Assembly: GCF_965283995.1 (NCBI RefSeq)
Contig: NZ_CBDIQG010000001.1
Span: 3,725,858 to 3,789,857, forward strand
Length of the DNA: 64,000 bases
DNA from: Rheinheimera sp.
GTDB taxonomy: Bacteria; Pseudomonadota; Gammaproteobacteria; Enterobacterales; Alteromonadaceae
Reading direction: 5' to 3'
The translations under genes were made by a program, and so were the position numbers. Of this stretch, positions 23,177 through 63,987 are shown in pieces. The notes under the pieces were generated by a model. That model was not told where the DNA came from, searched no databases, and was given only the letters and a program-made list of their open reading frames with translations. Position 1 is the stretch's first letter. Each line of letters begins with the position of its first letter.

Positions 23177-24001
23177 ATGCGTTATTGGCTGGTACTTTTC
23201 GCCGCATTGTGCTGGCTGAGCCCATTACAGGCTGCGCCGCTGACCGTGACCATCTTGCTGGAATTCAGCGAACAAAATGCCGCCGCATACGCTCAGCAGA
23301 TGTTGCATTGGCGACTGTTGCAACGCCATGCCGGCGAGGCGCTGGATGTGCGGTTTGAACACGTTAGCCTGCAACGCAGTTTTAGTCAGGTGCAGCAAAG
23401 CGGATATTGTGCGATCAATAAAATGAAAACACTGGAGCGGGAAGCGCGGTTATTGTTCAGTGAAAAACCGCTGAATGTATCGCCATCTATCCGCTTGATC
23501 CGCAGCGGCGCAGCAACGCTGGAGCCCGGTATTGATGTGGCCGCCTGGCTGGATGACGCGCCGAAACGCCAAATCGGCGTGGCTGCCGGGCGCAGTTATG
23601 GTAAAGCGCTGGATGCAGTGATCCAAAGCCACGCCAAGCAGGTGTACACGGTAGCCGGTGAAGATGTGAACCTGAAGTTATGGCAAATGCTGCAAAAAGG
23701 CCGGGTGGATGCGGTGCTGGATTACGTGGTGCGGATTGAATATTTGCGTTGGTTACAACAAGACCAGACCCCTTACCACGCTACTGCGATCCTGGGTCAG
23801 CCTTTGATCCTCGAAGGTTTTATTGTCTGCAACCGCAGCGCACATGGCCAACAGCTGATGCAATATTTTGATCAGCTGATGGCCACCCCGGCATTACAAC
23901 AAGCCCTGTACCAGAGTTATCAGCAGTATTTCTCTGTTGCTGAATGGCAGCAGGCACGGCCGTATTTCCAGAAGACATTTCCGGCTGCGGTTTTGCAATA
24001 A
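23177..24001 (+). CDS. Orphan periplasmic solute-binding-protein-like protein, paralog 2
   Basis: Signal peptide 'MRYWLVLFAALCWLSPLQA'. Tandem paralog of 22287..23108. Confidence 0.55.
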   Translation: MRYWLVLFAALCWLSPLQAAPLTVTILLEFSEQNAAAYAQQMLHWRLLQRHAGEALDVRFEHVSLQRSFSQVQQSGYCAINKMKTLEREARLLFSEKPLNVSPSIRLIRSGAATLEPGIDVAAWLDDAPKRQIGVAAGRSYGKALDAVIQSHAKQVYTVAGEDVNLKLWQMLQKGRVDAVLDYVVRIEYLRWLQQDQTPYHATAILGQPLILEGFIVCNRSAHGQQLMQYFDQLMATPALQQALYQSYQQYFSVAEWQQARPYFQKTFPAAVLQ

Positions 24002-24018
24002 AGTATTGCGTTTCTTCG

Positions 24019-24046
24019 AGTAAGACAGCTGAAAAGCTGTCTTACT
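24019..24046. terminator. Hairpin between convergent genes (weak T-run)
   Basis: 'AGTAAGACAGC tgaaaa GCTGTCTTACT ttag'. Confidence 0.5.
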
Positions 24047-24065
24047 TTAGCGGTCTGACCGCAGC

Positions 24066-51362: not shown

Positions 51363-51587
51363 AGACCGCTTAGCAAAGATGTCACCTGACGGTGAGTTCC
51401 TTTCTTTTGTCTTGCCAAAAGAAAGGAACCGAAAGAAAAGGCGCCACCCGGTTCCGCTCTAAAGCCCGTCTGAAAAGTCGCCGTCCAAGGCGAAAACGTA
51501 ACTCGCACGGCGCTAGCGTCGCCGTGCTCAGACACCCGTTTTCTTAAAACCTTGGCCAACGATTTTCAGCCGGTTCGCTCCAACGGG
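51363..51587. repeat. Left copy of a ~225-bp structured element (inverted relative to 51664..51885)
   Basis: It aligns base-for-base with the reverse complement of 51664..51885, roughly three quarters identical by eye. It contains hairpin 51396-51429 'GTTCCTTTCTTTT gtcttgcc AAAAGAAAGGAAC'. Confidence 0.85.
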
Positions 51588-51663
51588 CAGCCGGTCTCAA
51601 TTAGTGGTACTTGCTTTTAATTCTCTTTGGTTAAAATCAAAAACAACTAAAAAAGCCAATCCC

Positions 51664-51885
51664 CCCGTTGGAGCGAGCCGATGCAAATCAGCGGTTTGAG
51701 GTTTTAAGCTGGGGAGTGTTTGAGTGCGGCGACGGTAGCGCCGTGCGAGTTGCCCCAGCGCCTCAAATTGTTGATTTTCATCGGTCTTTCGAGCGTAACC
51801 GGGGTCGGTTTTTCTTTGGTTACTTTCTTTTGCTGAAACAAAAGAAAGTGACTCACCAACAGGTGAAATCTTTGCTAGACGGTCT
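51664..51885. repeat. Right copy of the ~225-bp structured element (inverted)
   Basis: It contains hairpin 51819-51852 'GTTACTTTCTTTT gctgaaac AAAAGAAAGTGAC'. The arms are separated by a ~76-bp AT-rich spacer. Confidence 0.85.
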
Positions 51886-53920: not shown

Positions 53921-55399
53921 ATGTCCAGCCTCACGTTGTCGGCGCCACGCCAGAGTGGTCGCCTGCTGATTTACAAAGTCCTCGGTTACTTGCTGTTATT
54001 GTTGTCGGTGGTACATCTGAGCGGCGCCGCGGTGTCGGTGTATTTTAACGAAAACACTTTTTGGACCTTCCTCGGTACTGCAGCGACCTGTGTCATTGTC
54101 GGCTACAGCCTGACGTTAATGGGCCGCGATGCGGTTGCGATGAAGCAGCGACAGTTGTTTTTGTTGACCACGTTAAGCTGGTTGGTCATTTGTGTTTTTT
54201 CTGCCTTGCCGTTCTGGCTGATTATTCCCAATTCAAGTTTTACCAATGCCTGGTTTGAAACAGTTTCCGGTATCACCACTACCGGCGCGACTGTCTACTC
54301 GGGCTTAGATAATCTGCCAAAAGGTATTTTGTACTGGCGCGCGATCCTGAACTGGATTGGTGGGATCGGCATTATCGTGATGGCCATCGCCATTTTGCCA
54401 GCGCTGAAAATCGGTGGCATGCGGCTGTTTAAAACTGAAAGCTCCGACACTTCAGAGAAAATCCTGCCGCGTAGCTCCTCGATGTCGGCGGCGATTGGCG
54501 GTGTTTATCTGGTGCTGAGTCTGGTCACGGCGATTGCGTATTATCTGGCTGGTATGAATGGCTTTGATGCCATTACTCATATGATGGCGACTGTTGCAAC
54601 CGGTGGTTTTGCTAATTACGACGCCTCATTTGGTGTTTACAAAGAGATGCCACAGATTTATTGGCTCAGCAGCTTTTTTATGTTGCTGGCGGCGATGCCT
54701 TTTGTGTTGTTTATCAGCATGGTGAAAGGGGATCGCAAAGCGCTATGGAAAGATCCACAAGTCCGGGCTTTCTTATTAATTGTGGCTTTTTGCACTGCGC
54801 TTCTGACTTATTATCAGGTAGCGCATAATGCGCGGGGCGCTTTTGATGCACTGACGCATAGCCTGTTTAATGTGGTCTCGATCATTACCACTTGTGGTTT
54901 TGCCTCCGAAGATTACACGCTGTGGGGCAATATGGCCGTGATGCTGTTTTTCTATATCACCTTTGCCGGTGCTTGTTCCGGCTCGACTTCGGGCGGCCTG
55001 AAAATTTTCCGTATTCAGTTGTCAGCGATGTTACTGGTCAAACAGCTGAAATTGCTGATCCATCCTAAAGCGGTTTGGAGCCAGAAATATGGCGGCAAGT
55101 CGGTCGACGACCAGTTGCTTGGCAACGTGCTGGCGTTTTGCTTTATCTATTTCGCCAGTATTGGTTTCATTGCGTTGATGTTGTCATTTTATGAATTAGA
55201 TCTGGTCACTGCGGTGACAGGCGCAGCAACAGCTGTGGCAAACGTAGGGCCGGGTCTTGGTTCTATTATTGGCCCCGCCGGCAATTTTTCCAGCTTGCCA
55301 GATGGTGCCAAGTGGTGGTTAAGTTTAGGTATGTTATTGGGCCGGCTCGAAATTCTGACGCTGGTGGTGTTATTTTCCCCGTCGTACTGGCGGTATTGA
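53921..55399 (+). CDS. trkH: TrkH-family potassium uptake protein
   Basis: Pore-loop motifs 'SGITTTGAT', 'ATGGFANYDAS', 'IITTCGFAS' and 'CSGSTSGGLKIFR'. About ten or more TM helices. Confidence 0.9.
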   Translation: MSSLTLSAPRQSGRLLIYKVLGYLLLLLSVVHLSGAAVSVYFNENTFWTFLGTAATCVIVGYSLTLMGRDAVAMKQRQLFLLTTLSWLVICVFSALPFWLIIPNSSFTNAWFETVSGITTTGATVYSGLDNLPKGILYWRAILNWIGGIGIIVMAIAILPALKIGGMRLFKTESSDTSEKILPRSSSMSAAIGGVYLVLSLVTAIAYYLAGMNGFDAITHMMATVATGGFANYDASFGVYKEMPQIYWLSSFFMLLAAMPFVLFISMVKGDRKALWKDPQVRAFLLIVAFCTALLTYYQVAHNARGAFDALTHSLFNVVSIITTCGFASEDYTLWGNMAVMLFFYITFAGACSGSTSGGLKIFRIQLSAMLLVKQLKLLIHPKAVWSQKYGGKSVDDQLLGNVLAFCFIYFASIGFIALMLSFYELDLVTAVTGAATAVANVGPGLGSIIGPAGNFSSLPDGAKWWLSLGMLLGRLEILTLVVLFSPSYWRY

Positions 55400-55408
55400 G
55401 GCAACACG

Positions 55409-56422
55409 ATGGCCTTGGCTTATCTGCAAAAGAATAGCGGGTGGCGTCATTCACTGCTGTGGTCGGTCAGCGGGATCCTGCTGCTGCCGGTACTGGGGTG
55501 TCTGCTGCTGATACCGCTGCGCGAGGCCATCAGTCCGACTGATGTCGCGATGCTGTTGTTATTGTGGATCAGTGCAATGGCTCTGCAGTTTGGCAAAGCA
55601 CCGGCGATGCTGACGACGATCTGGTCGGTGTTATTGCTGAACTGGTGTTTTGTGCCGCCGTATTACACGCTGAACGTGCATGATATCAGTAACTTTATCA
55701 GCTTTTTTGTCATGGCTGCGTTTGGGGTATTTATCAGCTATTTGTCTGATCGTTTGCGTCAGCAACTGCAGACCAGCGCGCAGCAACAACTGCAGGTGGA
55801 ACTGGAACAGCAACGCGCCGTGTTACTGCGCAGTCTGTCACATGATCTACGCACACCACTGGCGACCATCATGGGCGCGTCCAGTATGCTGGCGGATACT
55901 GATTTGCAATTGTCGGCTGAGCAACGGCAGCAACAGGCGCAGAATATCTATCAGCAAAGTCTGCTGCTCAATCAACATTTTGAAAAAGTGCTGGAATTAA
56001 GTAAAGCCCAGCTGATGCGCGATTCGTTGCGGATCAGTGTATTCAGTGCAGATGATTTAATTGCCGGCGCGCTGGCGCGGCGCAGTGACGATGCCGGCTT
56101 AATGCCGGTTTGCCTGCGACCGGAGGGCGCGGCGCAGCAGCTATCCGGCGATTTGGAGTTATTAGAAATGGCGCTGGCGAATTTACTGGAAAATGCCCAT
56201 CGACACGGTGCTCCGCCTTATCAGCTGGTGTTCAGCGCGGCGGACGGGCATTACCAGTTGCGACTGCACAATGCCCCCGGCGAGAAACGTCAGACGCAGC
56301 GCGACAGCGGCACCGGGCTTGGACTACGGATCTGTCAGACTGTCGCGGCACTGCATCGCGGCCGCTTTGTGCTGGAACACAGCGCGAGCGGCGTGACGGC
56401 GTTGCTGGAGTGGCCACAATGA
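55409..56422 (+). CDS. Short KdpD-like sensor histidine kinase (DUF4118 membrane domain + HisKA + HATPase, lacking the N-terminal KdpD/Usp sensor domains)
   Basis: 'LLLNWCFVPPYYTLNVHD' (DUF4118 signature), H-box 'LRSLSHDLRTPLATIMG', N-box 'LANLLENAHRHG' and G-box 'DSGTGLGL'. Only 337 aa. Confidence 0.8.
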   Translation: MALAYLQKNSGWRHSLLWSVSGILLLPVLGCLLLIPLREAISPTDVAMLLLLWISAMALQFGKAPAMLTTIWSVLLLNWCFVPPYYTLNVHDISNFISFFVMAAFGVFISYLSDRLRQQLQTSAQQQLQVELEQQRAVLLRSLSHDLRTPLATIMGASSMLADTDLQLSAEQRQQQAQNIYQQSLLLNQHFEKVLELSKAQLMRDSLRISVFSADDLIAGALARRSDDAGLMPVCLRPEGAAQQLSGDLELLEMALANLLENAHRHGAPPYQLVFSAADGHYQLRLHNAPGEKRQTQRDSGTGLGLRICQTVAALHRGRFVLEHSASGVTALLEWPQ

Positions 56423-57120
56423 AAAGTACCACGCCAACATTAACGCCAGCACAAAATCGGGTCCTGCTGCTGGAAGACGACGCGGGCATGCAGAGTTTTC
56501 TGCAGGCGTTGCTGCAAAGTCAGGGTTATCAGCTACAGATCTGTGCCGAAGGGCTCAGCGGTCTGGAACTGCTGGCGCACCAGCAATTTGACGTGTTGTT
56601 GCTGGATTTGGGTCTACCTGACATCGACGGCATTGAGCTGTTGCGCCAGTTGCGGCAATGGTCCGAGATCCCGGTGATTGTCATTTCGGCCCGCGGCAAA
56701 GAGCAGGACAAAGTAACGGCTCTGGACTGCGGTGCCAACGATTATGTCACCAAGCCGTTCAGCGCCGGCGAACTGCTGGCGCGCTTGCGTGCAGCGCTGC
56801 GACCGCGGCATGGTCACACGCCGGTCCTGGGCTTTGGCACAGTGCGGATTGACCCGGTGCAGCGGTTGGTCCACAAAGATGACGTCGCAGTCCATCTAAC
56901 CAAAACCGAATACGAAATGTTGTTATGTCTGCTGCGTCACGCCGGATCTGCATTGACCCACAACCAGATCCTGACCCAGGTCTGGGGCGCTACTTATCAG
57001 GACAGACCCGAATATATCCGCGTGCATATGGCAGGGCTGCGGCAAAAACTGGAAGACAACCCGGCCGCCCCGCAGCATCTGAAAACTGAAGCCGGCGTCG
57101 GCTACCGCTTGTGTTTGTAA
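56419..57120 (+). CDS. OmpR-family response regulator, KdpE-like
   Basis: ATGA overlap with the kinase stop. 'RVLLLEDD', 'DVLLLDLGLPDIDG', 'DYVTKPF' and winged helix 'LTKTEYEMLLCLL....YIRVHMAGLRQKLE'. Confidence 0.88.
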   Translation: MKSTTPTLTPAQNRVLLLEDDAGMQSFLQALLQSQGYQLQICAEGLSGLELLAHQQFDVLLLDLGLPDIDGIELLRQLRQWSEIPVIVISARGKEQDKVTALDCGANDYVTKPFSAGELLARLRAALRPRHGHTPVLGFGTVRIDPVQRLVHKDDVAVHLTKTEYEMLLCLLRHAGSALTHNQILTQVWGATYQDRPEYIRVHMAGLRQKLEDNPAAPQHLKTEAGVGYRLCL

Positions 57121-57172: not shown

Positions 57173-57186
57173 GTGCGTCAGCGCAC
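57173..57186. promoter_or_regulatory. Palindromic box GTGCG-N4-CGCAC, copy 1 (perfect)
   Basis: 'GTGCGTCAGCGCAC', 79 nt upstream of ATG 57266 (DUF883 operon). 'CATAGT' lies 23-28 nt downstream of the box. Confidence 0.5.
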
Positions 57187-57265
57187 CGAAGTCCTGCGCT
57201 GAAACAGGCATAGTTACAGCTCCTGCCCCGCACTGCTGCGGATCTGGCAGAGTTCTGAGGTAGCT

Positions 57266-57598
57266 ATGCAAACGTCAACCGACCCGCTCAAAATGAATAC
57301 CAGCGCCGATGCCAAAGCATCAGGTTTTAATCATGTGATTGACCAGGCGTCTGCTGCCGCCCATCCGGTAATTGATCAGTTCAGTGTTAAAGCGCATGAC
57401 ACCGTTGATCGGCTGGCCAGCGCCGCCAGTCATAGTGCCGAGAATTTTGATGTACGTTCCGAACAGCTGACTGCTGCCGGGCAACGTCTCGGTAACGCGG
57501 TCAGAGGCCAAATCCGCCGCCGGCCTGTGGCTGTACTTGGCGCTGCTGTGGCCACAGGTTTTGTCATCAGCTGGTTGCTGAAATCCCGTGCCGGCTGA
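57266..57598 (+). CDS. DUF883 (ElaB/YqjD/YgaM) family membrane-anchored stress protein
   Basis: GAGG RBS. C-terminal anchor 'RRRPVAVLGAAVATGFVISWLLKSR' after a helical region. Confidence 0.8.
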   Translation: MQTSTDPLKMNTSADAKASGFNHVIDQASAAAHPVIDQFSVKAHDTVDRLASAASHSAENFDVRSEQLTAAGQRLGNAVRGQIRRRPVAVLGAAVATGFVISWLLKSRAG

Positions 57599-58064
57599 AC
57601 CGGCCGGACCTGCCGATACTCCCGGCGCTGCTCCGGTCCATGCCGCAGCGCCGGGTCTGGTGGATCAGCTGAAAGAGTATCTGCAGCTGATCCGCAGCCA
57701 GTGGCGGCAACAATTGCAGTTACTGACTCTCGAGACACAGCGCGCTGCCGAAAGTCTGGTGGCGATCTGTGTGCTTGGGCTCTTTGCCGCATTGCTGCTG
57801 CTCAGTAGTTGGGTGATTATGCTGTTGTTAGTGTGGACCGGTTTGGCTGCGCTTGGCTGGTCAGCCTGGCAGGGTTTGCTGGTGTTATTGCTATTACAGC
57901 TGCTGGCGCTGGCAATTTGTTTGCGGCAAATCCGTTATCACAGTCACTTTCTGCGTTTTCCGGCGACGTTACAGAGCTGGAGCGAGCATTCATCCGGCGA
58001 CACCGTCAACGGATCTGAACCACCAGCAGAGGCAGCACCATGTCCTTCACATCCAGTCAGTTAA
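57588..58064 (+). CDS. YqjE-like (DUF1469 / holin-3_6 family) membrane protein
   Basis: Gene order after DUF883. 'LLTLETQRAAESLVAICVLGLFAALLLLSSWVIMLLLVW' and a second TM helix. GTG start, uncertain. Confidence 0.6.
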   Translation: MPAEPAGPADTPGAAPVHAAAPGLVDQLKEYLQLIRSQWRQQLQLLTLETQRAAESLVAICVLGLFAALLLLSSWVIMLLLVWTGLAALGWSAWQGLLVLLLLQLLALAICLRQIRYHSHFLRFPATLQSWSEHSSGDTVNGSEPPAEAAPCPSHPVS

Positions 58065-58372
58065 ACCAGCAAATCCAGCGCTGTGCCGGTTCATTGCAAG
58101 CTCGCCGGACCCAGCGCCAACAAGTACAGCACCGGTTGATCGTCCGCTTGAAAACGCCACTGCTACTGGCTGGCGGATTGGTGCTGACCCTGAGTCTGCT
58201 GCAGCACCTGTCGGTCGGCGCTGCCGAAAGACGTAAAGGCAGATCGTCGTGGCTACAACAACTGCCGGTCTGGTTGTTCGCGTTGTGGCAGAGTGCACAG
58301 CATGTGCGTGTTCTGCCACAGCAACGCACCAAGTCGCAGCAACGCGCCGCTGCCAAACAAGTAAACGCATAA
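58040..58372 (+). CDS. YqjK-like protein
   Basis: 'LQARRTQRQQVQHRLIVRLKTPLLLAGGLVL' and its position as the third gene of a yqjD-yqjE-yqjK-type operon. Confidence 0.6.
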   Translation: MSFTSSQLNQQIQRCAGSLQARRTQRQQVQHRLIVRLKTPLLLAGGLVLTLSLLQHLSVGAAERRKGRSSWLQQLPVWLFALWQSAQHVRVLPQQRTKSQQRAAAKQVNA

Positions 58373-58376
58373 AAAA

Positions 58377-58419
58377 ACGGCGGGTGCACAGGTGATTTAC
58401 TATCACCGGCACCCGCCGT
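58377..58419. terminator. Bidirectional terminator hairpin
   Basis: 'aaaaaaACGGCGGGTGC aca GGTGAtttactaTCACC g GCACCCGCCGT' between convergent genes. Confidence 0.7.
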
Positions 58420-58427
58420 CGCAGCGA

Positions 58428-58847
58428 TTAATTCAGGTTGCTGCCGTAAAAGCTATGTAGTGATTTTTCCCATTCCACATCTTTCATATTGGGCCAGTGG
58501 CCTTTGTCAAAACCCGGCGCGTTTTTCAGCCGCTCGGGTGACAAATCCATGACAAAACATTTTTGCAGCGGGTCCAGTTTCAGCATCTTCCAAGGTACGG
58601 CGAACAGTTTCTCGCCGAGGCCAAAGTAAGTACTGAACGACAACACGGCATAGCCGACGCGGCCGGTTTCCACTTCCAACATGATTTCTTTGATGTCACC
58701 CAGGGTTTGACCTGCATGATTCAACACGTTGTTGCCAATCAACGTTTCGGCACCCATCAAATGTGGACCCGGGCCTTGTGCCATTAGCGGCGGGGAAAAC
58801 TGTGGGTTGTTGTAAATGCCATAAATATCGCGTTCGTGATAATTCAT
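58428..58847 (-). CDS. PRC-barrel domain protein (copy 1)
   Basis: 'LIGNNVLNHAGQTLGDIKEIMLEVETGRVGYAVLSFSTYFGLGEKLFAVPWKML'. Confidence 0.8.
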   Translation of the reverse strand: MNYHERDIYGIYNNPQFSPPLMAQGPGPHLMGAETLIGNNVLNHAGQTLGDIKEIMLEVETGRVGYAVLSFSTYFGLGEKLFAVPWKMLKLDPLQKCFVMDLSPERLKNAPGFDKGHWPNMKDVEWEKSLHSFYGSNLN

Positions 58848-59049
58848 CTGATGAACCTTCTGTGGTTGCCGGCGAACCGGGCAGTGACGATAACGCCGCG
58901 TTGGAGCCGCGGGCGGCGGATGTGTCCTGTAATGGACAGTTCATTGAGCATGCGCTGTCAGCGTGCGGTTCTCTGTTCGGCGGAGCACTTATCCCGCCGA
59001 CGGCCGGGCTATTGCGCTGTATGTAAATTAGCCATTACTACGGTATTGA

Positions 59050-59063
59050 GTGCGCCAGCGCAC
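59050..59063. promoter_or_regulatory. Palindromic box GTGCG-N4-CGCAC, copy 2 (perfect)
   Basis: 'GTGCGCCAGCGCAC', 74 nt upstream of ATG 59138 (DUF3309-BON) and 202 nt from the divergent PRC-barrel ATG. Confidence 0.5.
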
Positions 59064-59137
59064 CGATCGTCTGTACTGAACCGGGCACACTTGGGTTATC
59101 CGGGACCTTCTGTGCTCCGGCGCCACGGAGGCCACCC

Positions 59138-59299
59138 ATGTCCATTTCGACAATTTTGCTGATCATTCTGATCTTGTTGTTTCTGGGCGCTCTGCCCACC
59201 TGGCCGCATAGTCGTAGTTGGGGTTACCGCCCCGGCGGAGCCATCGGCATCATGCTGCTGGTGTTGATTGTGCTGCTGCTAACCGGTCGCGCCGGCTGA
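59138..59299 (+). CDS. DUF3309-family small membrane protein (53 aa, below the ORF-track cutoff)
   Basis: GGAG RBS. 'MSISTILLIILILLFLGALPTWPHSRSWGYRPGGAIGIMLLVLIVLLLTGRAG' matches the conserved 'LLGALPTWPYSRGWGY' pattern. Confidence 0.85.
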   Translation: MSISTILLIILILLFLGALPTWPHSRSWGYRPGGAIGIMLLVLIVLLLTGRAG

Positions 59300-59342
59300 T
59301 GCGGCAAGGTGATTTTTTCTGCTAAACCACGGAGTGTATGTG

Positions 59343-59654
59343 ATGAAAACCCATCAAGTTCTGCGTATTTTTCTGTTGACGCTGAGTCTGGCGACCGTTG
59401 CCGGCTGCAGCTCTGAACACAATAAAGAAGGCACTGGTGAGTATCTGGATGACAGCGTGATCACCACCAAAGTGAAAGCCGCGATCCTTGGCGAAAAAAC
59501 GCTCAGCGTTGCCGAAATCAACGTCGAAACTTTTAAAGGCGTGGTGCAGCTCAGCGGCTTTGTCAATTCACAGCAGGATATCAATACCGCGATGCGGCTG
59601 ACGCGCGATGTGGGCGGCGTGCTGTCGGTGAAAAATGATATGCGGGTTAAATAG
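59343..59654 (+). CDS. BON-domain lipoprotein (OsmY-like)
   Basis: GGAG 8 nt upstream of ATG 59343. Lipobox 'LATVAGC'. 'DSVITTKVKAAILGEKTLSVAEINVETFKGVVQLSGFVNSQQDINTAMRLTRDVGGVLSVKNDMRV'. Confidence 0.85.
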   Translation: MKTHQVLRIFLLTLSLATVAGCSSEHNKEGTGEYLDDSVITTKVKAAILGEKTLSVAEINVETFKGVVQLSGFVNSQQDINTAMRLTRDVGGVLSVKNDMRVK

Positions 59655-59747
59655 TCATCCGTGCCGCCGTGACCGTTGCCGCAGGAAAGGCAACGACATG
59701 CTGGCAACCCTGCTACCTGTTTCCTCATGCGTTCAGAAAGGAGTCTT

Positions 59748-60446
59748 ATGCCAGTCGTGATCCCTGCCACTCAAAGACCACAGATCCAGAACCGGCTGCT
59801 GCGACATCTGCCGGAAGCCGAACAAACCGCGTTATTGGCACAGGCGGAGCTGGTGCAACTGGAGTTTGCTGAGGCGCTTTGTCTACCCGACGAACAATAT
59901 CAGCATTTGTATTTCCCGCTGACTGCGTTTATCTCGCTGATCGCCAAACTGCCGGGCCATCCGCCGCTGGAAATGGGCCTGGTCGGCTACGAAGGTATGT
60001 TGGGGGTCACCACATTGCTGCAAACCCGGCAAGTGCCGTCAGAAGCGATAGTGCAGGGCGCAGGCCTCGCCTGGCGCTTCCCGGTTTCGGTGATTGAAAC
60101 TGCGTTGGCGCAAAGTGAGCACTTGGCGCCTTTGCTGCGCGTGTACATGTATCTGTTGTTGCGTCAGCTCAATAAAAACGCGGTGTGCGCCCATTTTCAT
60201 CAGGTGGAAGCACGGTTAGCAAGATGGTTACTGATGAGTCATGACCGGATCCAGACCGACGAATTGTATTTAACCCATCAGTTTCTGGCCGACATGCTCG
60301 GCGTGCGCCGCAGCAGTATCACGGTCGCCGCCGGCGATTTACAGGCCAACGGCATCATTTTGTATAACCGGGGCCGGCTGCATATTCTCGACCGGCAAAG
60401 CCTGCTGGCACGCAGTTGCAGCTGTTATCAGCCTCTGAGTGGTTAG
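59748..60446 (+). CDS. Crp/Fnr-family transcriptional regulator, paralog 1
   Basis: AAGGAG RBS. cNMP-binding-like N-domain and HTH 'THQFLADMLGVRRSSITVAAGDLQANGII'. C-terminal 'CSCY'. Confidence 0.85.
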   Translation: MPVVIPATQRPQIQNRLLRHLPEAEQTALLAQAELVQLEFAEALCLPDEQYQHLYFPLTAFISLIAKLPGHPPLEMGLVGYEGMLGVTTLLQTRQVPSEAIVQGAGLAWRFPVSVIETALAQSEHLAPLLRVYMYLLLRQLNKNAVCAHFHQVEARLARWLLMSHDRIQTDELYLTHQFLADMLGVRRSSITVAAGDLQANGIILYNRGRLHILDRQSLLARSCSCYQPLSG

Positions 60447-60468
60447 AACAACAACTAAACACCGCTAT

Positions 60469-60482
60469 GTGCGTTACCGCAC
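60469..60482. promoter_or_regulatory. Palindromic box GTGCG-N4-CGCAC, copy 3 (perfect; core of a 26-bp perfect palindrome at 60463-60488)
   Basis: 'CGCTATGTGCG ttac CGCACATAGCG', followed by 'ataaatttttt', so it could double as the terminator of paralog 1. It lies 70 nt upstream of ATG 60553. 'TATACT' lies 22-27 nt downstream. Confidence 0.5.
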
Positions 60483-60552
60483 ATAGCGATAAATTTTTTC
60501 TCGTATACTACAGCTGTATCTTTTTAGGTACGCTACCGCATAAGGATCTGCT

Positions 60553-61329
60553 ATGACGATTGACCCGCCGGCAGTTAAAGCTATAACGGAACAACCGAAC
60601 ACCAAAGCTATGCAGCCTCCTCCAGAAGCAAACCGCCTGTTATGTGAACTCCCTGAAGACGTCAAACACCGGATTAACCCACACCTGGAACTGGTGGAAC
60701 TCAAACTGGGTCAGGTGATTGGTGAAGCTGGCTGCAAGATGCGTTACGTGTATTTCCCGGTCGATTCGATCATTTCACTGTTATATGTGATGGAAAATGG
60801 TGCTTCGGCAGAAATAGCCGTCGTTGGCAATGATGGCATGGTCGGTGTGGCGCTATTTATGGGCGGCGAAAGCACCACCAGCCGGGCCGTAGTACAAAGT
60901 GCAGGTTATGCCTACAAGTTGTTTGGTCAGCGCCTGAAAGATGAATTTAACCGCCACGGCGCTTTGTTATATTTGCTGCTGCGTTATAGCCAGGTGTTGT
61001 TAACGCAGATGGCGCAAACGGCGGTGTGTAACCGCCATCATAGTATCGAACAGCAGCTGTGCCGCTGGTTGTTGTTGTCGATAGACCGGCTGCCGAGTGA
61101 TCATTTGCTGATGACGCAGGAACTGATTGCCAATATGCTCGGCGTGCGCCGGGAGGGCGTTACCGACGCTGCCGGTAAACTGCAGCGAATGGGTATCATC
61201 AATTACAGCCGGGGTCATATCGAAGTGGTGAATCGCAAGCTGTTGGAAGACACCTGTTGCGAATGTTACAACGTGGTCAAACATGAATCGGAACGATTAA
61301 TGCCACCGGGGCATTGCGGTAAATTCTAA
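60553..61329 (+). CDS. Crp/Fnr-family transcriptional regulator, paralog 2
   Basis: 'YVYFPVDSIISLLYVMENGASAEIAVVGNDGMVG' and HTH 'TQELIANMLGVRREGVTDAAGKLQRMGII'. C-terminal 'CCECY'. Confidence 0.85.
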   Translation: MTIDPPAVKAITEQPNTKAMQPPPEANRLLCELPEDVKHRINPHLELVELKLGQVIGEAGCKMRYVYFPVDSIISLLYVMENGASAEIAVVGNDGMVGVALFMGGESTTSRAVVQSAGYAYKLFGQRLKDEFNRHGALLYLLLRYSQVLLTQMAQTAVCNRHHSIEQQLCRWLLLSIDRLPSDHLLMTQELIANMLGVRREGVTDAAGKLQRMGIINYSRGHIEVVNRKLLEDTCCECYNVVKHESERLMPPGHCGKF

Positions 61330-61335
61330 TAAGTG

Positions 61336-61378
61336 ACAGAAAAAGAACAGCGGCATTAGCCGCTGTTCTTTTTTCTGT
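61336..61378. terminator. Bidirectional rho-independent terminator
   Basis: 'ACAGAAAAAGAACAGCGGC atta GCCGCTGTTCTTTTTTCTGT'. Confidence 0.85.
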
Positions 61379-61391
61379 CGTGCGGAAGTCG

Positions 61392-62597
61392 TTATTGTAA
61401 CAGCAAGCGAAACAGCACGCGCATATTGGCCATTGCTGCGCTGGAGCGCAGTTCAGACGGCGTATTTTCCACTTCGGCCGGCGACGCTTCGCCATAGCCG
61501 ATACTGGTCAGCCGGGCTGGGGTTAGCCCGCCTTCATTGGTCAGATAGTCCTGCACTGCTTGTGCCCGGCGCTCGCTAAGCTGCTGATTGTAAGCTTCGG
61601 TGCCACTGGCCGAGGTGTAACCGGCTATCTGTACCTGTGTATCCGGTTGTGTTTTTAACGTTGCAACATGCTGCGCCAGAATAGTTTTGGCGGCAGGCGT
61701 CAGCGCAGACTGGTTAAACTCAAAATGTACGTCGGCCAGTTCTATCAATACCGGCGCAGCGTCTGGCGCTGCAGGCGATGGCGCTGGCGGATCGGCGTAC
61801 GGTTCCGGTGCTGCAGTTGGCTCGGGTGCTGCCGTGGGCTCAGCATAAGCGGTGCGCTGACCATATTGGTACACCAGGCCCAGCGACAGCAGCTTCATAT
61901 CGCCCTGGTCGCCCCAGAGATCATCCAGCCGGTAGCGTTCCAGTTCGAGCCGCATGCCCCAATCCGGCGTCAGCTGATATTCCAGACCTGCACCAAATTT
62001 ATGTTTCAGATAGTGCTTACTGCGGTCGTACTGATCCAGATTGATCGGCCGCTGATACTCAAGCCGCGAATCAGTGTCGTTATAGGTCAGACCCAGTCGC
62101 GCCGTGACAGCAAAGGCACTGCCTAATAACATCCGCGCCACCAAATCCAGATTGGCCCCCTGATCACGCAAATGACCAGCGAGCGGATACGTGCTGCCAG
62201 TCGGCGTGGCGGCTGTGACAGCGGAGAAATCCACTTCACCGAGGCGAAAATAACCGCCCTCCAGTGCCAGATAATCATTCAGCGCGAATCCGGCAAACAG
62301 TTTATAGCCGGTGTCATTGGTATTGCGCGACAACGACGCCAGCGGTAAACCTTGCGCCTGCATATCACGTTCAAGTTGTGAGGTATCGAGACTAAGCCGC
62401 GATTCGCCAACACTGGCACCGACATACCAGGAAGGTGTTTCCATCCGGTAGCTGTCGGCCATTACGAGCTGTGGCAAAACTAAAACGCAGCCGCTGCAGA
62501 ACCACAACGCCAGTGTTCGCGGCGTCAACCGTGGGCAAGATGCAACAGATGCGTCAGCGGGCAGTGCCGGGGCGACGCCTTTGGATTGTATTAACAT
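61392..62597 (-). CDS. OmpA-family outer-membrane protein (N-terminal beta-barrel, Pro-rich linker, C-terminal OmpA peptidoglycan-binding domain)
   Basis: Linker 'AEPTAAPEPTAAPEPYADPPAPSPAAPD'. OmpA-C 'FEFNQSALTPAAKTILAQHV....GYTSASGTEAYNQQLSERRAQAVQDYL'. Start at ATG 62597 (GGAG 6 nt upstream). Confidence 0.85.
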   Translation of the reverse strand: MLIQSKGVAPALPADASVASCPRLTPRTLALWFCSGCVLVLPQLVMADSYRMETPSWYVGASVGESRLSLDTSQLERDMQAQGLPLASLSRNTNDTGYKLFAGFALNDYLALEGGYFRLGEVDFSAVTAATPTGSTYPLAGHLRDQGANLDLVARMLLGSAFAVTARLGLTYNDTDSRLEYQRPINLDQYDRSKHYLKHKFGAGLEYQLTPDWGMRLELERYRLDDLWGDQGDMKLLSLGLVYQYGQRTAYAEPTAAPEPTAAPEPYADPPAPSPAAPDAAPVLIELADVHFEFNQSALTPAAKTILAQHVATLKTQPDTQVQIAGYTSASGTEAYNQQLSERRAQAVQDYLTNEGGLTPARLTSIGYGEASPAEVENTPSELRSSAAMANMRVLFRLLLQ

Positions 62598-62661
62598 AAT
62601 CATCTCCAACAAATCCGGACCCGCCTTACGGGGGCGGAACCGGCAATAAACGGGACCGTCT

Positions 62662-62805
62662 CTAACTGCGGGCCTGAAAGACATCAACCAGCAGCAGGAT
62701 CAGCGCAAATACCAATAACGCGTGGATCAGGCTGCCAATCCCTATCGGCGCTAACAGCCCAAGCAGCCACAGCACCAGCAATACCAAAGCGACGGTTCTT
62801 AACAT
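62662..62805 (-). CDS. lmo0937-like small membrane protein (47 aa, below the ORF-track cutoff)
   Basis: GGAG RBS. 'MLRTVALVLLVLWLLGLLAPIGIGSLIHALLVFALILLLVDVFQARS' matches the 'LLVLWLLG....G.LIH.LLV.A' pattern. Confidence 0.75.
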   Translation of the reverse strand: MLRTVALVLLVLWLLGLLAPIGIGSLIHALLVFALILLLVDVFQARS

Positions 62806-62862
62806 GTCAGTTCTCCTATGGGTTGTTGGCCAGCTGACGGCGCGTCCGCGCTGGCCACACTG

Positions 62863-63336
62863 TCAGTCACTGCTGTAAAAGCCATCTACCTTGCGCTGCC
62901 ACTGCGGATCGGCCATCGCCGGCCACAGGGCACGGTCAAAACCCTCCTGACGCTGTAATTCGGTATGTTCAGCTTCAACGCTAAAGTGGCGCTGGTCAGC
63001 ATCCAGCACTAATGCATGCCAGGGCAGGGCGAACAGGCGCGGCGGTGCGACAAACGAACTGGGATAAGCCAGCACTGCATAGCTGATCCGGCCGGTTTTC
63101 AGGTCCAGCACTATGCTGTCTAGCGTGCCTAATATCTCACCGCGATGATTCTTCAGCCGCTGGCCGACCAGCTTTTTACAGCCAAGCAGCAAAGTGTCGG
63201 GATTGTCCGAGTTGACCGGATAAGGCTCGGCCTGCCCGGCATGGATTGCACCATGGTTTGCGGTATTGTGCCGCTGCGGGTTAGCGCCGTAACTGGACCC
63301 TGGTGCTGATAAGGTGGCTTTGTGGTGTTTGTTCAT
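62863..63336 (-). CDS. PRC-barrel domain protein (copy 2)
   Basis: AGGAG 7 nt upstream of ATG 63336. 'LVGQRLKNHRGEILGTLDSIVLDLKTGRISYAVLAYPSSFVAPPRLFALPWHAL'. Confidence 0.8.
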   Translation of the reverse strand: MNKHHKATLSAPGSSYGANPQRHNTANHGAIHAGQAEPYPVNSDNPDTLLLGCKKLVGQRLKNHRGEILGTLDSIVLDLKTGRISYAVLAYPSSFVAPPRLFALPWHALVLDADQRHFSVEAEHTELQRQEGFDRALWPAMADPQWQRKVDGFYSSD

Positions 63337-63398
63337 CGGACGCTCCTGTGTCATGACATTCACTCCCTGCAACATGGCGGGTTTATCTGCGTTGATCT

Positions 63399-63412
63399 GT
63401 GCGCTGCAGCAC
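63399..63412. promoter_or_regulatory. Palindromic box, copy 4 (9/10)
   Basis: 'GTGCGCTGCAGCAC', 62 nt upstream of the minus-strand ATG 63336. Confidence 0.4.
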
Positions 63413-63476
63413 CCAGTCCGTAAAAGCCCCGGCAACAACCCCGATTTGCTAACAGCATTGCCACAATTGATGCCAT

Positions 63477-63490
63477 GCGCGCTAACGCAC
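63477..63490. promoter_or_regulatory. Palindromic box, copy 5 (9/10)
   Basis: 'GCGCGCTAACGCAC', 80 nt upstream of ATG 63571. It shares the 3' extension 'CGCACCGA' with copies 1 and 2. Confidence 0.4.
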
Positions 63491-63570
63491 CGACTACAGC
63501 CTGCTGACTTGCCAAGCTGCACGTCCGGTTCCTGCAACTCTGCAAGGCGCCGAATTACCCTGAGGTCCTT

Positions 63571-63987
63571 ATGAATAAGTTCACCGAACAGAATAAAGCT
63601 GCTGCAAAAATCGACCCGAATACCACCACTGCAAAAACCGACGCGCTGGCCAAAACGGCCAAAGATGACTCTAAGGCTGCGGCCAGCGACACCACCAACA
63701 TGAGCAAAGCGGTTGCCGCCGACAAAGCTAAATTGGACGCAACGACACGCACACCGGCCGAAAATGGCAAACCGGCGGACAGCGCGAAAAAAGACGCCTT
63801 TAACGGCAAATGGCACAGCCAGATCCAGGCGGCGAAAAGTAACTGGAGCAAAATCAGTGAAAGCGAATTACTGAAATCCGGTGGTGTGGAAACCAACCTG
63901 ACTGATTTGGTGCAACAGCGTTATTCGCTGAGCCAGGACATGGCCAGCAAACAGGTAAAAAGTTTTATTGATAAATGTCATTGCTAA
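63571..63987 (+). CDS. CsbD-like general stress protein with a K/A/D-rich N-terminal extension
   Basis: GAGG RBS. C-terminal 'GKWHSQIQAAKSNWSKISESELLKSGGVETNLTDLVQQRYSLSQDMASKQVKSFID' matches the CsbD pattern. Confidence 0.75.
   Translation: MNKFTEQNKAAAKIDPNTTTAKTDALAKTAKDDSKAAASDTTNMSKAVAADKAKLDATTRTPAENGKPADSAKKDAFNGKWHSQIQAAKSNWSKISESELLKSGGVETNLTDLVQQRYSLSQDMASKQVKSFIDKCHC

Follow-up and report, generated by a model that had tools for sequence, protein, structure and literature searches.

Results

A palindrome recurs between the genes of a stress-type island

The window, a 64-kb stretch of Rheinheimera sp. DNA, carries between 57.1 and 63.5 kb an island with genes for two Crp/Fnr paralogs, two PRC-barrel proteins, and DUF3309, BON, OmpA-like, and CsbD-like proteins. 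A KdpD/KdpE-like pair lies directly 5′ of the first palindrome (box 1).

The palindrome GTGCG-N4-CGCAC (GTGCGNNNNCGCAC) occurs in exact form at 57173, 59050, and 60469, with no further copy in the 64 kb. These three copies span 3.4 kb, whereas shuffled sequences average 0.24 copies per window and none of 100 shuffles reaches three, in line with the view of the initial annotation that chance does not account for them. Considered as a class, one-mismatch matches show no enrichment in the 64-kb window (seven observed versus 5.8 expected). A 22-nt matrix derived from other genomes gives the two such copies at 63399 and 63477 scores of 19.2 and 18.1 bits, respectively; both persist as footprints in Rheinheimera texasensis (L001) and on a contig of 93% identity (L201), and each has a -10-like hexamer at the spacing typical of the family. 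These features mark both 9/10 copies as genuine, as originally proposed, while the remaining one-mismatch matches (31026 and 36504) score below 8 bits each. Seven matrix sites of at least 10 bits fall in 57.1-63.5 kb and none in the remaining 57 kb. With its flanks, the full element is a 20-bp palindrome, TcTGTGCGcTAgCGCACAgA, written TnTGTGCG-N4-CGCACAnA, and the extension CGCACCGA is indeed common to boxes 1, 2, and 5.

All five boxes of the initial annotation are intergenic, and the gaps it gave from box to start codon (79, 74, 70, 62, and 80 nt) are correct. The sites in the island belong to six promoters, since the five boxes are joined by a site at 58975 that had been overlooked. No promoter with consensus -35 and -10 elements was found in the box-bearing intergenic regions of the window. 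The features are listed below, with distances to hexamers measured from the centre of the site.

57173-57186, plus strand: box 1, GTGCGTCAGCGCAC, exact match, 14.4 bits, kept in R. texasensis and L201
57209-57214, plus strand: -10-like CATAGT of the box 1 promoter, starting 29.5 nt from the box centre
57266-58372, plus strand: putative three-gene target operon (ORFs 57266-57598, 57588-58064, and 58040-58372)
58428-58847, minus strand: PRC-barrel protein 1, 139 aa, putative target (Pfam PF05239, E = 2.5e-10)
58947-58952, minus strand: -10-like CATGCT for PRC-barrel 1, at +29.5 (58975 site)
58975-58988, minus strand: additional putative operator, GTTCGGCGGAGCAC (plus-strand sequence), 15.6 bits, predicted to serve PRC-barrel 1
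59050-59063, plus strand: box 2, GTGCGCCAGCGCAC, exact match, 20.7 bits, footprint in R. texasensis
59086-59091, plus strand: -10-like CACACT of the box 2 promoter, at +29.5
59138-59299, plus strand: DUF3309 protein, putative target (Pfam PF11752, E = 8e-23)
59343-59654, plus strand: BON-domain lipoprotein, putative target (Pfam PF04972, E = 4e-19)
59748-60446, plus strand: Crp/Fnr paralog 1, 232 aa (HTH_Crp_2, E = 9e-15)
60469-60482, plus strand: box 3, GTGCGTTACCGCAC, exact match, 26.7 bits, the top score in the window
60504-60509, plus strand: -10 TATACT for paralog 2, at +28.5 (box 3)
60528-60541, plus strand: weak second site, GTACGCTACCGCAT, 10.8 bits, just 5′ of the paralog 2 ribosome-binding site
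60553-61329, plus strand: Crp/Fnr paralog 2, 258 aa, proposed binder (Pfam cNMP_binding and HTH_Crp_2)
61346-61367, both strands: terminator-like hairpin between paralog 2 and the convergent OmpA-like gene
61392-63336, minus strand: probable operon from box 4
61392 to about 62600 (start uncertain), minus strand: OmpA-like protein (Pfam and NCBIfam)
62662-62805, minus strand: lmo0937/DUF5670 membrane peptide (Pfam and NCBIfam)
62863-63336, minus strand: PRC-barrel protein 2 (Pfam and NCBIfam)
63371-63376, minus strand: -10-like CATGTT of the box 4 promoter, at +29.5
63399-63412, minus strand: box 4, GTGCGCTGCAGCAC, 9/10 match, 19.2 bits, R. texasensis footprint TGATCTGTGCGyTrCAGCAC
63477-63490, plus strand: box 5, GCGCGCTAACGCAC, 9/10 match, 18.1 bits, in a 27-nt block identical in R. 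texasensis
63513-63518, plus strand: -10-like CAAGCT of the box 5 promoter, at +29.5
63571-63987, plus strand: CsbD-like protein, 138 aa, putative target (weak NCBIfam PRK10428 match, E = 8e-5)

Box 1 is the putative operator at the promoter of the first three genes, whose overlaps suggest a single transcript. The first ORF encodes a 110-residue protein with a C-terminal membrane anchor; its former label, DUF883, finds neither a Pfam match nor BLASTP similarity to a true DUF883 protein. The second is Phage_holin_3_6/holin-X-like, and the third (110 residues) has no Pfam match. The 58975 site sits within a block, TCTCTGTTCGGCG..GCACTTATC, that is conserved in the R. texasensis alignment; the site itself is identical in L201, and PRC-barrel 1 has a 91%-identical ortholog in R. 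texasensis. Box 2 is the candidate operator for the DUF3309 and BON genes, whose families are recurrent targets in other loci too, and probably for paralog 1. Because no matrix site is present 5′ of paralog 1 in 59655-59747, this gene is probably co-transcribed from box 2. The hexamer here, CACACT, is the most frequent one in the family at the +29.5 position.

On the far side of the island, box 4 is the putative operator for PRC-barrel 2 and the genes downstream. Together with the lmo0937/DUF5670 and OmpA-like genes, PRC-barrel 2 forms a probable operon, with no site between the genes and the same order in R. texasensis and L201. Box 5 is the putative operator for the CsbD-like gene. That name stands with the qualification that it derives from the weak NCBIfam match and from a 54-residue stretch 43% identical to a protein encoded at another locus, one grouped with CsbD-family targets; CsbD is the most frequent small-protein target across the family.

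Box 3, the putative operator of the paralog 2 promoter, scores 27.8 bits in its R. texasensis ortholog. Once described as the core of a 26-bp perfect palindrome, it is an inverted repeat whose 11-nt arms (60463-60473 and 60478-60488) pair perfectly, and the TTAC spacer between them is not palindromic. With the 4-nt loop and the T-run that comes next (ATAAATTTTTT), the arms receive a terminator score on both strands and look like a terminator of the upstream operon as well. One could argue that box 3 is merely the intrinsic terminator of the DUF3309-BON-paralog 1 operon and, more generally, that the boxes are hairpins without a protein partner. We consider this very unlikely, given that the other five sites have 5-bp arms only, lack a T-run, and lie 5′ of a -10 in divergent or promoter-side intergenic DNA. 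Moreover, the R. texasensis ortholog of box 3 has no T-run, and conservation is base-specific, including spacer and flanks (T at -2, central TA), rather than merely complementary. In this lineage, box 3 possibly serves as both operator and terminator.

The weak site at 60528 reaches 17.2 bits in L201, the closest relative, and has lost its right half in R. texasensis; family-wide, no second site was found at a fixed offset near paralog 2-type genes. The autoregulation suggested earlier from box 3 and this site would rest on box 3 rather than on the 60528 site. The latter is possibly a negative-feedback site in this lineage only.

The motif accompanies one Crp/Fnr clade

Among 80 loci from Gamma- and Betaproteobacteria, selected solely by similarity to paralog 2, the motif is present in 78; the two siteless loci include L064, where the Crp/Fnr homolog has a divergent helix. 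Exact copies number 47, versus 0-10 for composition-matched palindromes, and matrix sites of at least 12 bits number 384, versus 20 in a reversed-sequence control. Sites are intergenic in 358 of 385 cases (93%) and coding in 27, whereas the DNA is ~21% intergenic and 79% coding. Their density is maximal in the 1 kb 5′ of the regulator gene (71 sites, 56 loci). Unselected flanks are conserved in the 47 exact sites, all from other genomes, with T at -2 in 78 of 94 half-sites, and so is a central cTAg in the spacer. The outer half-site base is G in 98% of sites, and the third is the least conserved core position (57-60% G).

Where the intergenic DNA of R. texasensis has diverged, the boxes rank among the blocks that are best preserved. 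The motif is conserved 5′ of orthologs of the stress genes and in front of the regulators' own genes. A reverse search with the DNA pattern TNTGTGCGNTANCGCACANA alone against metagenome contigs returned 120 loci, mostly of 1-5 kb. This Crp/Fnr subfamily is carried by 36 of these short contigs, in 22 cases directly downstream of the match, and a regulon family is present on 60. Intergenic enrichment, footprints in orthologous islands, and recovery of the regulator from the pattern alone all agree with the initial reading of the palindrome as a Crp/Fnr operator.

The association of the motif with the Crp/Fnr clade of paralog 2 proved exclusive. A transcription factor from outside the Crp/Fnr family might nevertheless bind the boxes, an example being the KdpE-like response regulator whose gene pair lies directly upstream of box 1. 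This idea is hardly credible: Crp/Fnr is the only DNA-binding family common to the 80 loci, the KdpDE-like pair is missing from the syntenic R. texasensis locus, and a 20-bp GTG-N8-CAC palindrome would suit a Crp/Fnr dimer.

The putative targets in these loci are CsbD, BON, DUF3309, PRC-barrel, lmo0937-type, and DUF883 proteins, PAS-GGDEF cyclases, and the regulators themselves. PAS-GGDEF is the most frequent non-self target (27 genes, 21 loci); the window itself has no GGDEF target.

Sites keep a fixed distance to -10-like hexamers

For sites with a gene on one side only (n = 206), a hexamer with A2 and T6 begins at exactly +29.5 in 121 cases (59%) on the gene side versus 33 (16%) on the other side, against a background of 4.7% (Fisher p = 1e-19). 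The spacing is exactly +29.5, to the base pair, in 185 of 244 cases. It would place the site centre at about -41.5 relative to starts predicted from the -10-like signal, the position of class II CRP/FNR activators, as the initial annotation had surmised. Its -10-like hexamers 22-28 nt downstream are present, except that TATACT starts 21 nt past box 3, one base closer than at the other five promoters. TATACT at +28.5 is typical for regulator-gene promoters across the family. The other window hexamers are C-initial (CATAGT, CACACT, CATGCT, CATGTT, and CAAGCT), which is unusual for sigma-70, and the promoter of the regulator gene itself frequently carries CTATACT, which is sigma-S-like. The site system and the sigma-S regulon may be linked.

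The same geometry bears on whether the boxes are instead repressor operators, at which a Crp/Fnr protein over the -35 region would block RNA polymerase until a signal releases it. The overlap with the -35 region would allow this, the regulator's own strong -10 (TATACT) may need no activator, and a weak second site lies 3′ of the likely paralog 2 start in this lineage. We judge repression improbable, since target promoters with a weak -10 and no -35 bear the hallmark of activator dependence, and class II activation needs the precision seen in 185 of 244 cases, whereas steric repression does not.

The data favour paralog 2 as the putative binder

The two paralogs share 36% identity. Paralog 2 has the recognition helix GVRREGVTDAAGK, beginning with GVRRE and so containing the "RRE" noted earlier, and retains the equivalents of CRP R180 and E181. 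Its AlphaFold model (pLDDT 85) has a Crp/Fnr fold (TM 0.67-0.79). Orthologs across the 80 loci are 63-83% identical, with C159, H162, H163, C170, C236, and C238 invariant. The helix is essentially invariant among the orthologs found, which matches the stability of the motif. A point of counter-evidence is that the base expected to be read by the conserved Glu is the most variable core position, and the proposal that "RE" reads GTG is weakened accordingly by a third base that is G in just 57-60% of sites.

Could paralog 1 occupy the boxes, whether by itself, as a competitor of paralog 2, or paired with it in a heterodimer? It might, for example, be an antagonist induced by paralog 2, creating a pulse or a feedback loop. 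Its helix, GVRRSSITVA, has Ser in place of CRP Glu181, and the variable third base would suit such a Glu-less protein, which also retains both GVRR arginines, the probable readers of the best-conserved bases. A paralog 1-type gene adjoins the paralog 2-type gene in 43 of 80 loci, with 32 sites 5′ of such genes. In addition, masking the motif left no second palindromic motif in the loci, and hence no visible operator of paralog 1's own. We nonetheless regard binding by paralog 1 as rather unlikely. Sites occur in 35 of the 37 loci that have only the paralog 2 type within 10 kb, although a paralog 1-type gene may sit elsewhere; third-base usage is identical with or without paralog 1 nearby; and the paralog 1-type helix varies (RRSS, RRSG, QRSA, RRVG, RRAG), whereas the motif does not. 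The data point to the paralog 2 type as the putative binder.

Discussion

From sequence, we infer physical binding, activation rather than repression, and the identity of the binder. The boxes are quite likely operators of a dimeric Crp/Fnr factor whose gene lies in the island, with paralog 2 the most probable candidate. Its dimer would dock on the 20-bp palindrome centred 29.5 nt upstream of a weak -10 ([T/C]AnnnT), where, with no -35 hexamer present, a factor at about -41.5 would replace the -35 contact in class II activation. On receiving its signal, the regulator would activate six island promoters: those of the three-gene membrane-protein operon, two PRC-barrel units (one with lmo0937-type and OmpA-like genes), the DUF3309, BON, and paralog 1 unit, the CsbD-like gene, and the regulator's own gene. 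The last would be a promoter of another grade, whose near-consensus TATACT one base nearer the site is compatible with a basal level of expression combined with autoregulation.

The E. coli CRP consensus site is AAATGTGATCTAGATCACATTT, and the family consensus TGTGCGCTAGCGCACA equals it except that CG replaces AT at positions 8 and 9. The 5-N4-5 notation fits both the FNR box (TTGAT-N4-ATCAA) and the motif described here; the FNR-type geometry of the initial annotation is equally CRP-like, with GTG-N8-CAC in the register of TGTGA-N6-TCACA. TGTG, the central CTAG, the R180 and E181 equivalents, the fold, and a site centre ~41.5 nt from the predicted start are likewise shared with CRP. Unlike CRP, paralog 2 (only 14-16% identical to E. 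coli CRP structures) has R185 changed to D/E, K188 to G, and S179 to R; its alignment shows no conservation of the cAMP contacts E72 and R82, and the putative regulon comprises small stress proteins rather than catabolic genes. With FNR it shares the conserved Glu (E209 equivalent) and the predicted class II position at -41.5. Unlike FNR, it lacks the N-terminal Cys cluster and has T and D in place of S212 and R213, the half-site has an outer G rather than T, and no anaerobic-respiration genes are among the targets.

CsbD/YjbJ, BON/OsmY, DUF883/ElaB-YqjD, PRC-barrel, Transgly_assoc/YmgE-YeaQ, DUF1328/YtjA, and ferritin/Dps-like proteins are classic members of general-stress regulons (sigma-S, EcfG/PhyR). 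The target families overlap by Pfam with the regulons of sigma-S in E. coli and EcfG/PhyR in Alphaproteobacteria, but control here would act through an activator site at -41.5 rather than an alternative sigma-factor promoter. Xanthomonas Clp and Burkholderia Bcam1349 are c-di-GMP-responsive Crp/Fnr proteins. The present family may likewise be tied to c-di-GMP signalling, through its putative PAS-GGDEF targets, which does not imply c-di-GMP binding; the Clp structure is a distant fold match to paralog 2 (TM 0.59/0.72, 14% identity).

NnrR, an alphaproteobacterial Crp/Fnr protein, has the consensus ctTTGcgnnnncgCAAag (PMC1274295). Its inner core, TGCG-N4-CGCA, is identical to ours, whereas its outer base is T rather than the G of 98% of our sites, its nir/nor/nos denitrification genes are absent from the targets, and the taxa differ. 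RedB of Rhodobacter capsulatus offers a precedent, as it belongs to a widespread Crp/Fnr subgroup that was uncharacterised until recently, and many subgroups are reported to be still unstudied (PMC9603854). RedB is from a different subgroup; its 12-bp motif is AT-rich and not palindromic, and it acts as a repressor of energy metabolism.

We found no description of this regulator-operator pair in the searchable literature. Paralog 2 and its orthologs appear to form a new Crp/Fnr subfamily, one that has an operator of its own and a stress-type regulon. Regulator and site are found together again in many Gamma- and Betaproteobacteria.

Copies of the palindrome in the window

Three exact copies of GTGCG-N4-CGCAC, at 57173, 59050 and 60469 (boxes 1 to 3), are present in the window, as the initial annotation had claimed. 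Dinucleotide-preserving shuffles of the window contain an average of 0.24 exact copies, and 0 of 100 shuffles reach three. Chance as the origin of the motif is effectively excluded. Matches with one mismatch number 7 versus 5.8 expected, and copies of this kind are meaningless as a class. The two 9/10 copies singled out earlier, at 63399 and 63477 (boxes 4 and 5), are both genuine, being recovered by the 22-nt matrix described below and conserved in Rheinheimera texasensis and in a 93%-identical contig (L201).

The distances first given from each box to its downstream start codon (79, 74, 70, 62 and 80 nt) are correct, and the earlier gene map agrees with the present annotation, which gives the following order.

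KdpD/KdpE-like gene pair
57173, box 1
57266-58372, three-gene operon
58428-58847, minus strand, PRC-barrel gene 1
58947-58952, minus strand, -10-like hexamer of the site at 58975
58975-58988, predicted sixth operator GTTCGGCGGAGCAC, serving the minus-strand PRC-barrel gene 58428-58847 (15.6 bits; conserved in R. texasensis and L201)
59050, box 2
DUF3309 gene, BON gene and, at 59748-60446 on the plus strand, Crp/Fnr paralog 1
60469, box 3
60553-61329, plus strand, Crp/Fnr paralog 2
OmpA-like, lmo0937-type and PRC-barrel 2 genes, all on the minus strand
63399, box 4
63477, box 5
CsbD-like gene

Three descriptions need revision. The label 'DUF883' for the first gene of the 57266-58372 operon is not borne out, as this gene has no Pfam match and its product no BLASTP similarity to a true DUF883 protein. 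The label 'CsbD-like' can be kept as a weak one, given a weak NCBIfam match and 43% local identity. Finally, what was called a 26-bp perfect palindrome at box 3 is actually an 11-N4-11 inverted repeat.

The matrix recovers the five boxes, the weak site already noted at 60528, and the new site at 58975, which had been missed because its half-sites read GTTCG and GTGCT. The other 57 kb of the window contain no matrix site of at least 10 bits.

Several other features of the window were recorded. Directly upstream of the island, a short KdpD-like kinase with a KdpE-like response regulator adjoins a TrkH-family transporter gene (55409-57120 and 53921-55399). The kinase has 337 aa and matches the C-terminal part of the KdpD model only; the pair is present in L201 and absent from the syntenic R. 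texasensis locus. An imperfect inverted repeat of ~520 bp (51363-51885) makes up the greater part of the 780-bp intergenic stretch that two minus-strand genes flank, with arms that are 72-81% complementary, meet near 51625 and match no Rfam family. Indeed, an Rfam scan of the whole window gave no matches. Positions 24001-26000 have a G+C content of 0.41, versus 0.50-0.58 elsewhere in the window, and may represent acquired DNA.

Conservation of the element in related loci

We collected 80 genomic loci (±10 kb; 1.44 Mb) solely by similarity to paralog 2. The relatives are 63-83% identical to it, with those of Rheinheimera closest, and belong to many genera of Gamma- and Betaproteobacteria (including Rheinheimera, Pseudomonas, Halomonas, Pseudoalteromonas, Colwellia, Photobacterium, Dyella, Nevskia, Nitrosomonas, Undibacterium, Methylobacillus and Noviherbaspirillum), in addition to many metagenome-assembled genomes. 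These loci hold 47 copies of the exact motif, versus 0-10 for composition-matched palindromes. Positions outside the search pattern are conserved as well, with T at -2 in 78 of 94 half-sites and a central cTAg. Thus, the element is a 20-bp palindrome, TcTGTGCGcTAgCGCACAgA.

An iterated 22-nt matrix finds 384 sites of at least 12 bits in the 1.44 Mb, versus 20 in reversed-sequence controls. Although 79% of this DNA is coding, 358 sites are intergenic and 27 are coding. At least one site occurs in 78 of the 80 loci, and site density is maximal within the kilobase upstream of the regulator gene.

Conservation upstream of orthologs, a check proposed at the outset, is evident in R. texasensis, where the same island is found and the boxes and the 58975 site are among the best-conserved blocks in intergenic DNA that has otherwise diverged. 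All sites are kept in L201; the second one upstream of paralog 2 reaches 17.2 bits there, more than in the window. The 60528 site is confined to the lineage of the window. A conserved second site that would act in repression, at a constant distance from the main one ahead of the regulator gene, was sought at the family level and rejected. L201 also lacks ~280 bp of the PRC-barrel 2 gene (L201 7833-8060 versus window 62873-63153), leaving a 75-aa remnant flanked by intact operators.

The reverse approach begins from DNA alone. A search of metagenome contigs with the pattern TNTGTGCGNTANCGCACANA yielded 120 loci, mostly of 1-5 kb. The Crp/Fnr subfamily is encoded in 36 of them, directly downstream of the match in 22, and 60 of the 120 encode at least one regulon family. 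On contigs without a recognised regulon gene, 49% of matches have a -10 hexamer beginning 29.5 nt from the site centre (+29.5), versus 0-9% at control offsets. It follows that the regulon is large and dispersed.

Promoter architecture

When sites are aligned on their centres and oriented toward the downstream gene, A at +30.5 and T at +34.5 each occur in 57%, corresponding to a [T/C]AnnnT -10 hexamer from +29.5. Among 206 sites flanked by a gene on a single side, a hexamer with A2 and T6 begins at exactly +29.5 on the gene side in 59% and on the other side in 16% (Fisher p = 1e-19), against a background of 4.7%. In the window, five of six promoters have their hexamer at exactly +29.5 (CATAGT, CATGCT, CACACT, CATGTT and CAAGCT), and the sixth, that of paralog 2, has TATACT at +28.5. 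Each divergent region therefore contains a pair of sites, one for either direction.

Should the hexamer occupy -12 to -7, the site would be centred at -41.5, where CRP and FNR bind in class II promoters. The initial annotation had guessed this position, and the -10 spacing agrees with it for the inferred starts, both at the family level and at five of the six promoters of the window. A sigma-70 scan of the island found no -35/-10 consensus promoter in the box-bearing intergenic regions. A site with a predicted position near -41.5 lies beside a -10-like element and, by the consensus scan, a functional -35 hexamer is absent, as in class II promoters. The predicted architecture matches classic class II activation by CRP/FNR and reveals no new mechanism of transcription control. 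Repression in place of activation is conceivable but unlikely, since the -10 elements are weak, a -35 element is lacking and the spacing is exact to the base pair.

Promoters of the regulator genes (paralog 2 orthologs in the 80 loci, and at 60504-60509 in the window) differ from those of the targets. Their -10 elements are near consensus (TATACT, TATCCT, TATGCT) and lie one base nearer the site, at +28.5 in 17 of 32. T occupies -12 in 27 of 32 and C occupies -13 in 17 of 32, resembling a sigma-S-type CTATACT. Target promoters have [T/C]AnnnT at +29.5 and do not favour C at -13. In its 5' leader, the CsbD-like gene carries two blocks conserved with R. texasensis, CTGCAACTyTGCA and CGCCGAATyACCC (63520-63565; 12860-12915 in the R. 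texasensis locus), both located 3' of the inferred start.

A possible second role for box 3

Box 3 might have a function in addition to regulator binding. Its inverted repeat forms 11 pairs around a 4-nt loop, is followed by ATAAATTTTT and lies 17 nt past the stop codon of paralog 1. The region 60463-60500, in which the repeat is followed by ATAAATTTTTT, has an intrinsic-terminator score on both strands. A G+C-rich hairpin with a T-run 3' of a gene is thus found at box 3 and at none of the other boxes. The R. texasensis ortholog of box 3 has no T-run and does not have the features of a terminator. Box 3 may therefore be a terminator of the upstream operon as well as an operator, and because the R. 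texasensis ortholog lacks the T-run, this dual use may be lineage-specific.

The candidate regulator

Crp/Fnr is the sole DNA-binding family common to the loci, and a regulator of another family is effectively excluded. In the orthologs found, the paralog 2 type has an essentially invariant recognition helix, GVRREGVT[DE]AAGK, and that of the paralog 1 type is variable (RRSS, RRSG, QRSA, RRVG and others). A gene of the paralog 1 type is adjacent in 43 of the 80 loci, and sites are present in 35 of the 37 loci that have the paralog 2 type alone.

Paralog 1 could act at the boxes as a binder, a competitor or a heterodimer partner, which we regard as possible but doubtful. No second motif exists for this protein, and its own gene is under the motif. 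Dividing the sites by the third half-site base, with G assigned to the Glu-bearing paralog 2 and A or T to paralog 1, was rejected at this resolution; usage of this base does not differ between loci that have paralog 1 and loci that lack it, nor between target classes. A separate paralog 1 operator was also rejected. With the motif masked, an enumeration of every palindromic half-site of 4 or 5 nt, at gaps of 0-10, returned only terminator-like GC hairpins.

Paralog 2, the proposed binder, has the expected domains. A beta-roll domain of the cNMP-binding type (Pfam PF00027, 29.5 bits against a cut-off of 27.5; beta strands 46-124) is joined by a long dimerisation helix (136-162) to a C-terminal Crp-type winged helix-turn-helix (Pfam PF13545, E 3.5e-13; helices 189-196 and 200-212), as placed in a confident AlphaFold model with a pLDDT of 85. 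Foldseek gives TM scores of 0.67-0.79 to M. tuberculosis CRP, GlxR and FNR; fold matches, which include Clr and NtcA, range overall from 0.6 to 0.8 at only 11-22% identity. No solved structure is closer by sequence than E 2e-7, no NCBIfam model fits either paralog, and no record of the exact paralog 2 protein sequence was found. Paralog 1 matches HTH_Crp_2 (E 9e-15), has no Pfam cNMP_binding match, and is 36% identical to paralog 2 over 222 residues that include the N-terminal domain. The clade is very large; matches at E <= 1e-30 number 5,655 clusters at 50% identity.

A hinge Cys and His and a C-terminal CxC are 100% conserved in both paralog types (76 paralog 2 and 41 paralog 1 sequences). 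The conserved residues are C159, H162, H163, C170, C236 and C238 in paralog 2 and C147, H151, C224 and C226 in paralog 1. This set could be a metal or redox site, and we know of no such site in Crp/Fnr proteins.

Comparison with known regulators

Paralog 2 was aligned with E. coli CRP and FNR; identity to CRP is 16%, and the alignment of the cAMP region is approximate. Equivalents of CRP R180 and E181 are kept, whereas R185 is replaced by D or E and S179 by R. The cAMP contacts of CRP are not matched, with E72 in a gap and R82/S83 aligned, approximately, with T/T. The CRP operator TGTGA-N6-TCACA has TGTG in common with the element, but positions 8 and 9 are CG (84-94%) rather than AT. The consensus TGTGCGCTAGCGCACA equals the CRP consensus TGTGATCTAGATCACA except at positions 8 and 9, where CG replaces AT, and the helix changes at 179, 185 and 188 are plausible causes of this operator change. 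The earlier suggestion that the RE residues read GTG is tempered by the base read by CRP E181, which is the least conserved position of the core here (57-60% G).

The N-terminal cysteine cluster that holds the [4Fe-4S] of FNR is absent from paralog 2, whose invariant cysteines are at 159, 170, 236 and 238. FNR reads TTGAT-N4-ATCAA through E209, S212 and R213; here the outer base is G in 98% of sites, and the residues aligned to S212 and R213 are T and D. Among operators, the NnrR box, ctTTGcgnnnncgCAAag (PMC1274295), is closest in sequence; it has the inner TGCG-N4-CGCA in common but differs in the outer base, here G. Its nir/nor/nos regulon also differs, as no denitrification genes occur among 123 target clusters. 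RedB, a recently characterised Crp/Fnr subgroup with a non-palindromic motif (PMC9603854), is distinct from the paralog 2 subfamily. No description of the motif or regulon was found in the open-access literature, including the family-wide surveys PMC3590769 and PMC8510549, and such absence is not proof of novelty. As far as this literature shows, the Crp/Fnr subfamily is previously undescribed.

The predicted regulon

Genes downstream of sites in the related loci most often encode the regulators themselves.

Target genes by family
Crp/Fnr genes themselves: 95 genes, 64 loci
PAS-GGDEF diguanylate cyclases: 27 genes, 21 loci
CsbD: 20 genes, 19 loci
BON: 11 genes, 11 loci
DUF3309: 11 genes, 11 loci
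PRC-barrel: 9 genes, 6 loci
DUF4398: 9 genes, 9 loci
~2,900-aa proteins with GH94 domains (cyclic-glucan-synthase-like): 8 genes, 8 loci
lmo0937-type peptides: 8 genes, 8 loci

Further target families are glycine-zipper, Transgly_assoc, fatty-acid desaturases, DUF883, DUF1328, DUF3096, ferritin-like, fasciclin and PLD. Small conserved proteins typical of a general stress regulon (CsbD, BON, DUF883, Transgly_assoc, DUF1328, ferritin-like, PRC and glycine-zipper) thus lie downstream of the sites. Many of these target families are established, classic members of two known regulons, that of sigma-S in E. coli and that of EcfG in Alphaproteobacteria. Outside the window, in the full set of loci and metagenome contigs (L001-L200), PAS-GGDEF proteins are the commonest target after the regulators. 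Together with the cyclic-glucan-synthase-like targets, they suggest a link to c-di-GMP signalling and envelope glucans.

Implications for general stress control

The initial reading of the boxes as a Crp/Fnr operator is supported, and the finding is real. The element is very probably the operator of a Crp/Fnr subfamily with class II architecture that would control conserved small stress proteins. The target genes encode CsbD, BON/OsmY, DUF883, DUF3309, PRC-barrel, lmo0937-type and YmgE/YeaQ-type proteins, which rank with the most widespread stress proteins of unknown function in bacteria. To our knowledge, their regulation is poorly understood outside enterobacteria and Alphaproteobacteria. 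The analysis provides a precise and testable operator, a named candidate regulator, and a promoter architecture that holds in many uncultured lineages as well as in Rheinheimera, Pseudomonas, Halomonas, Nitrosomonas and Dyella. A large set of proteins annotated as 'Crp/Fnr family transcriptional regulator' becomes a defined subfamily with a predictable regulon, and its conserved Cys/His signature is a place to seek the signal. This breadth and the regulon make the biological interest moderate to good.

We tentatively raise a wider proposal, whose parts taken together are rather unlikely all to hold, in which the clade would serve many Gamma- and Betaproteobacteria as a master activator of a general-stress-type regulon. 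Sensing would occur through a site new to the family, both paralog types keeping the invariant hinge Cys/His and the C-terminal CxC. Output would pass into c-di-GMP synthesis through the PAS-GGDEF targets, and the response would be tuned by the partner paralog, which lacks the specificity Glu. If true, the clade would stand next to sigma-S and EcfG as a third way to switch on the same set of small stress proteins.
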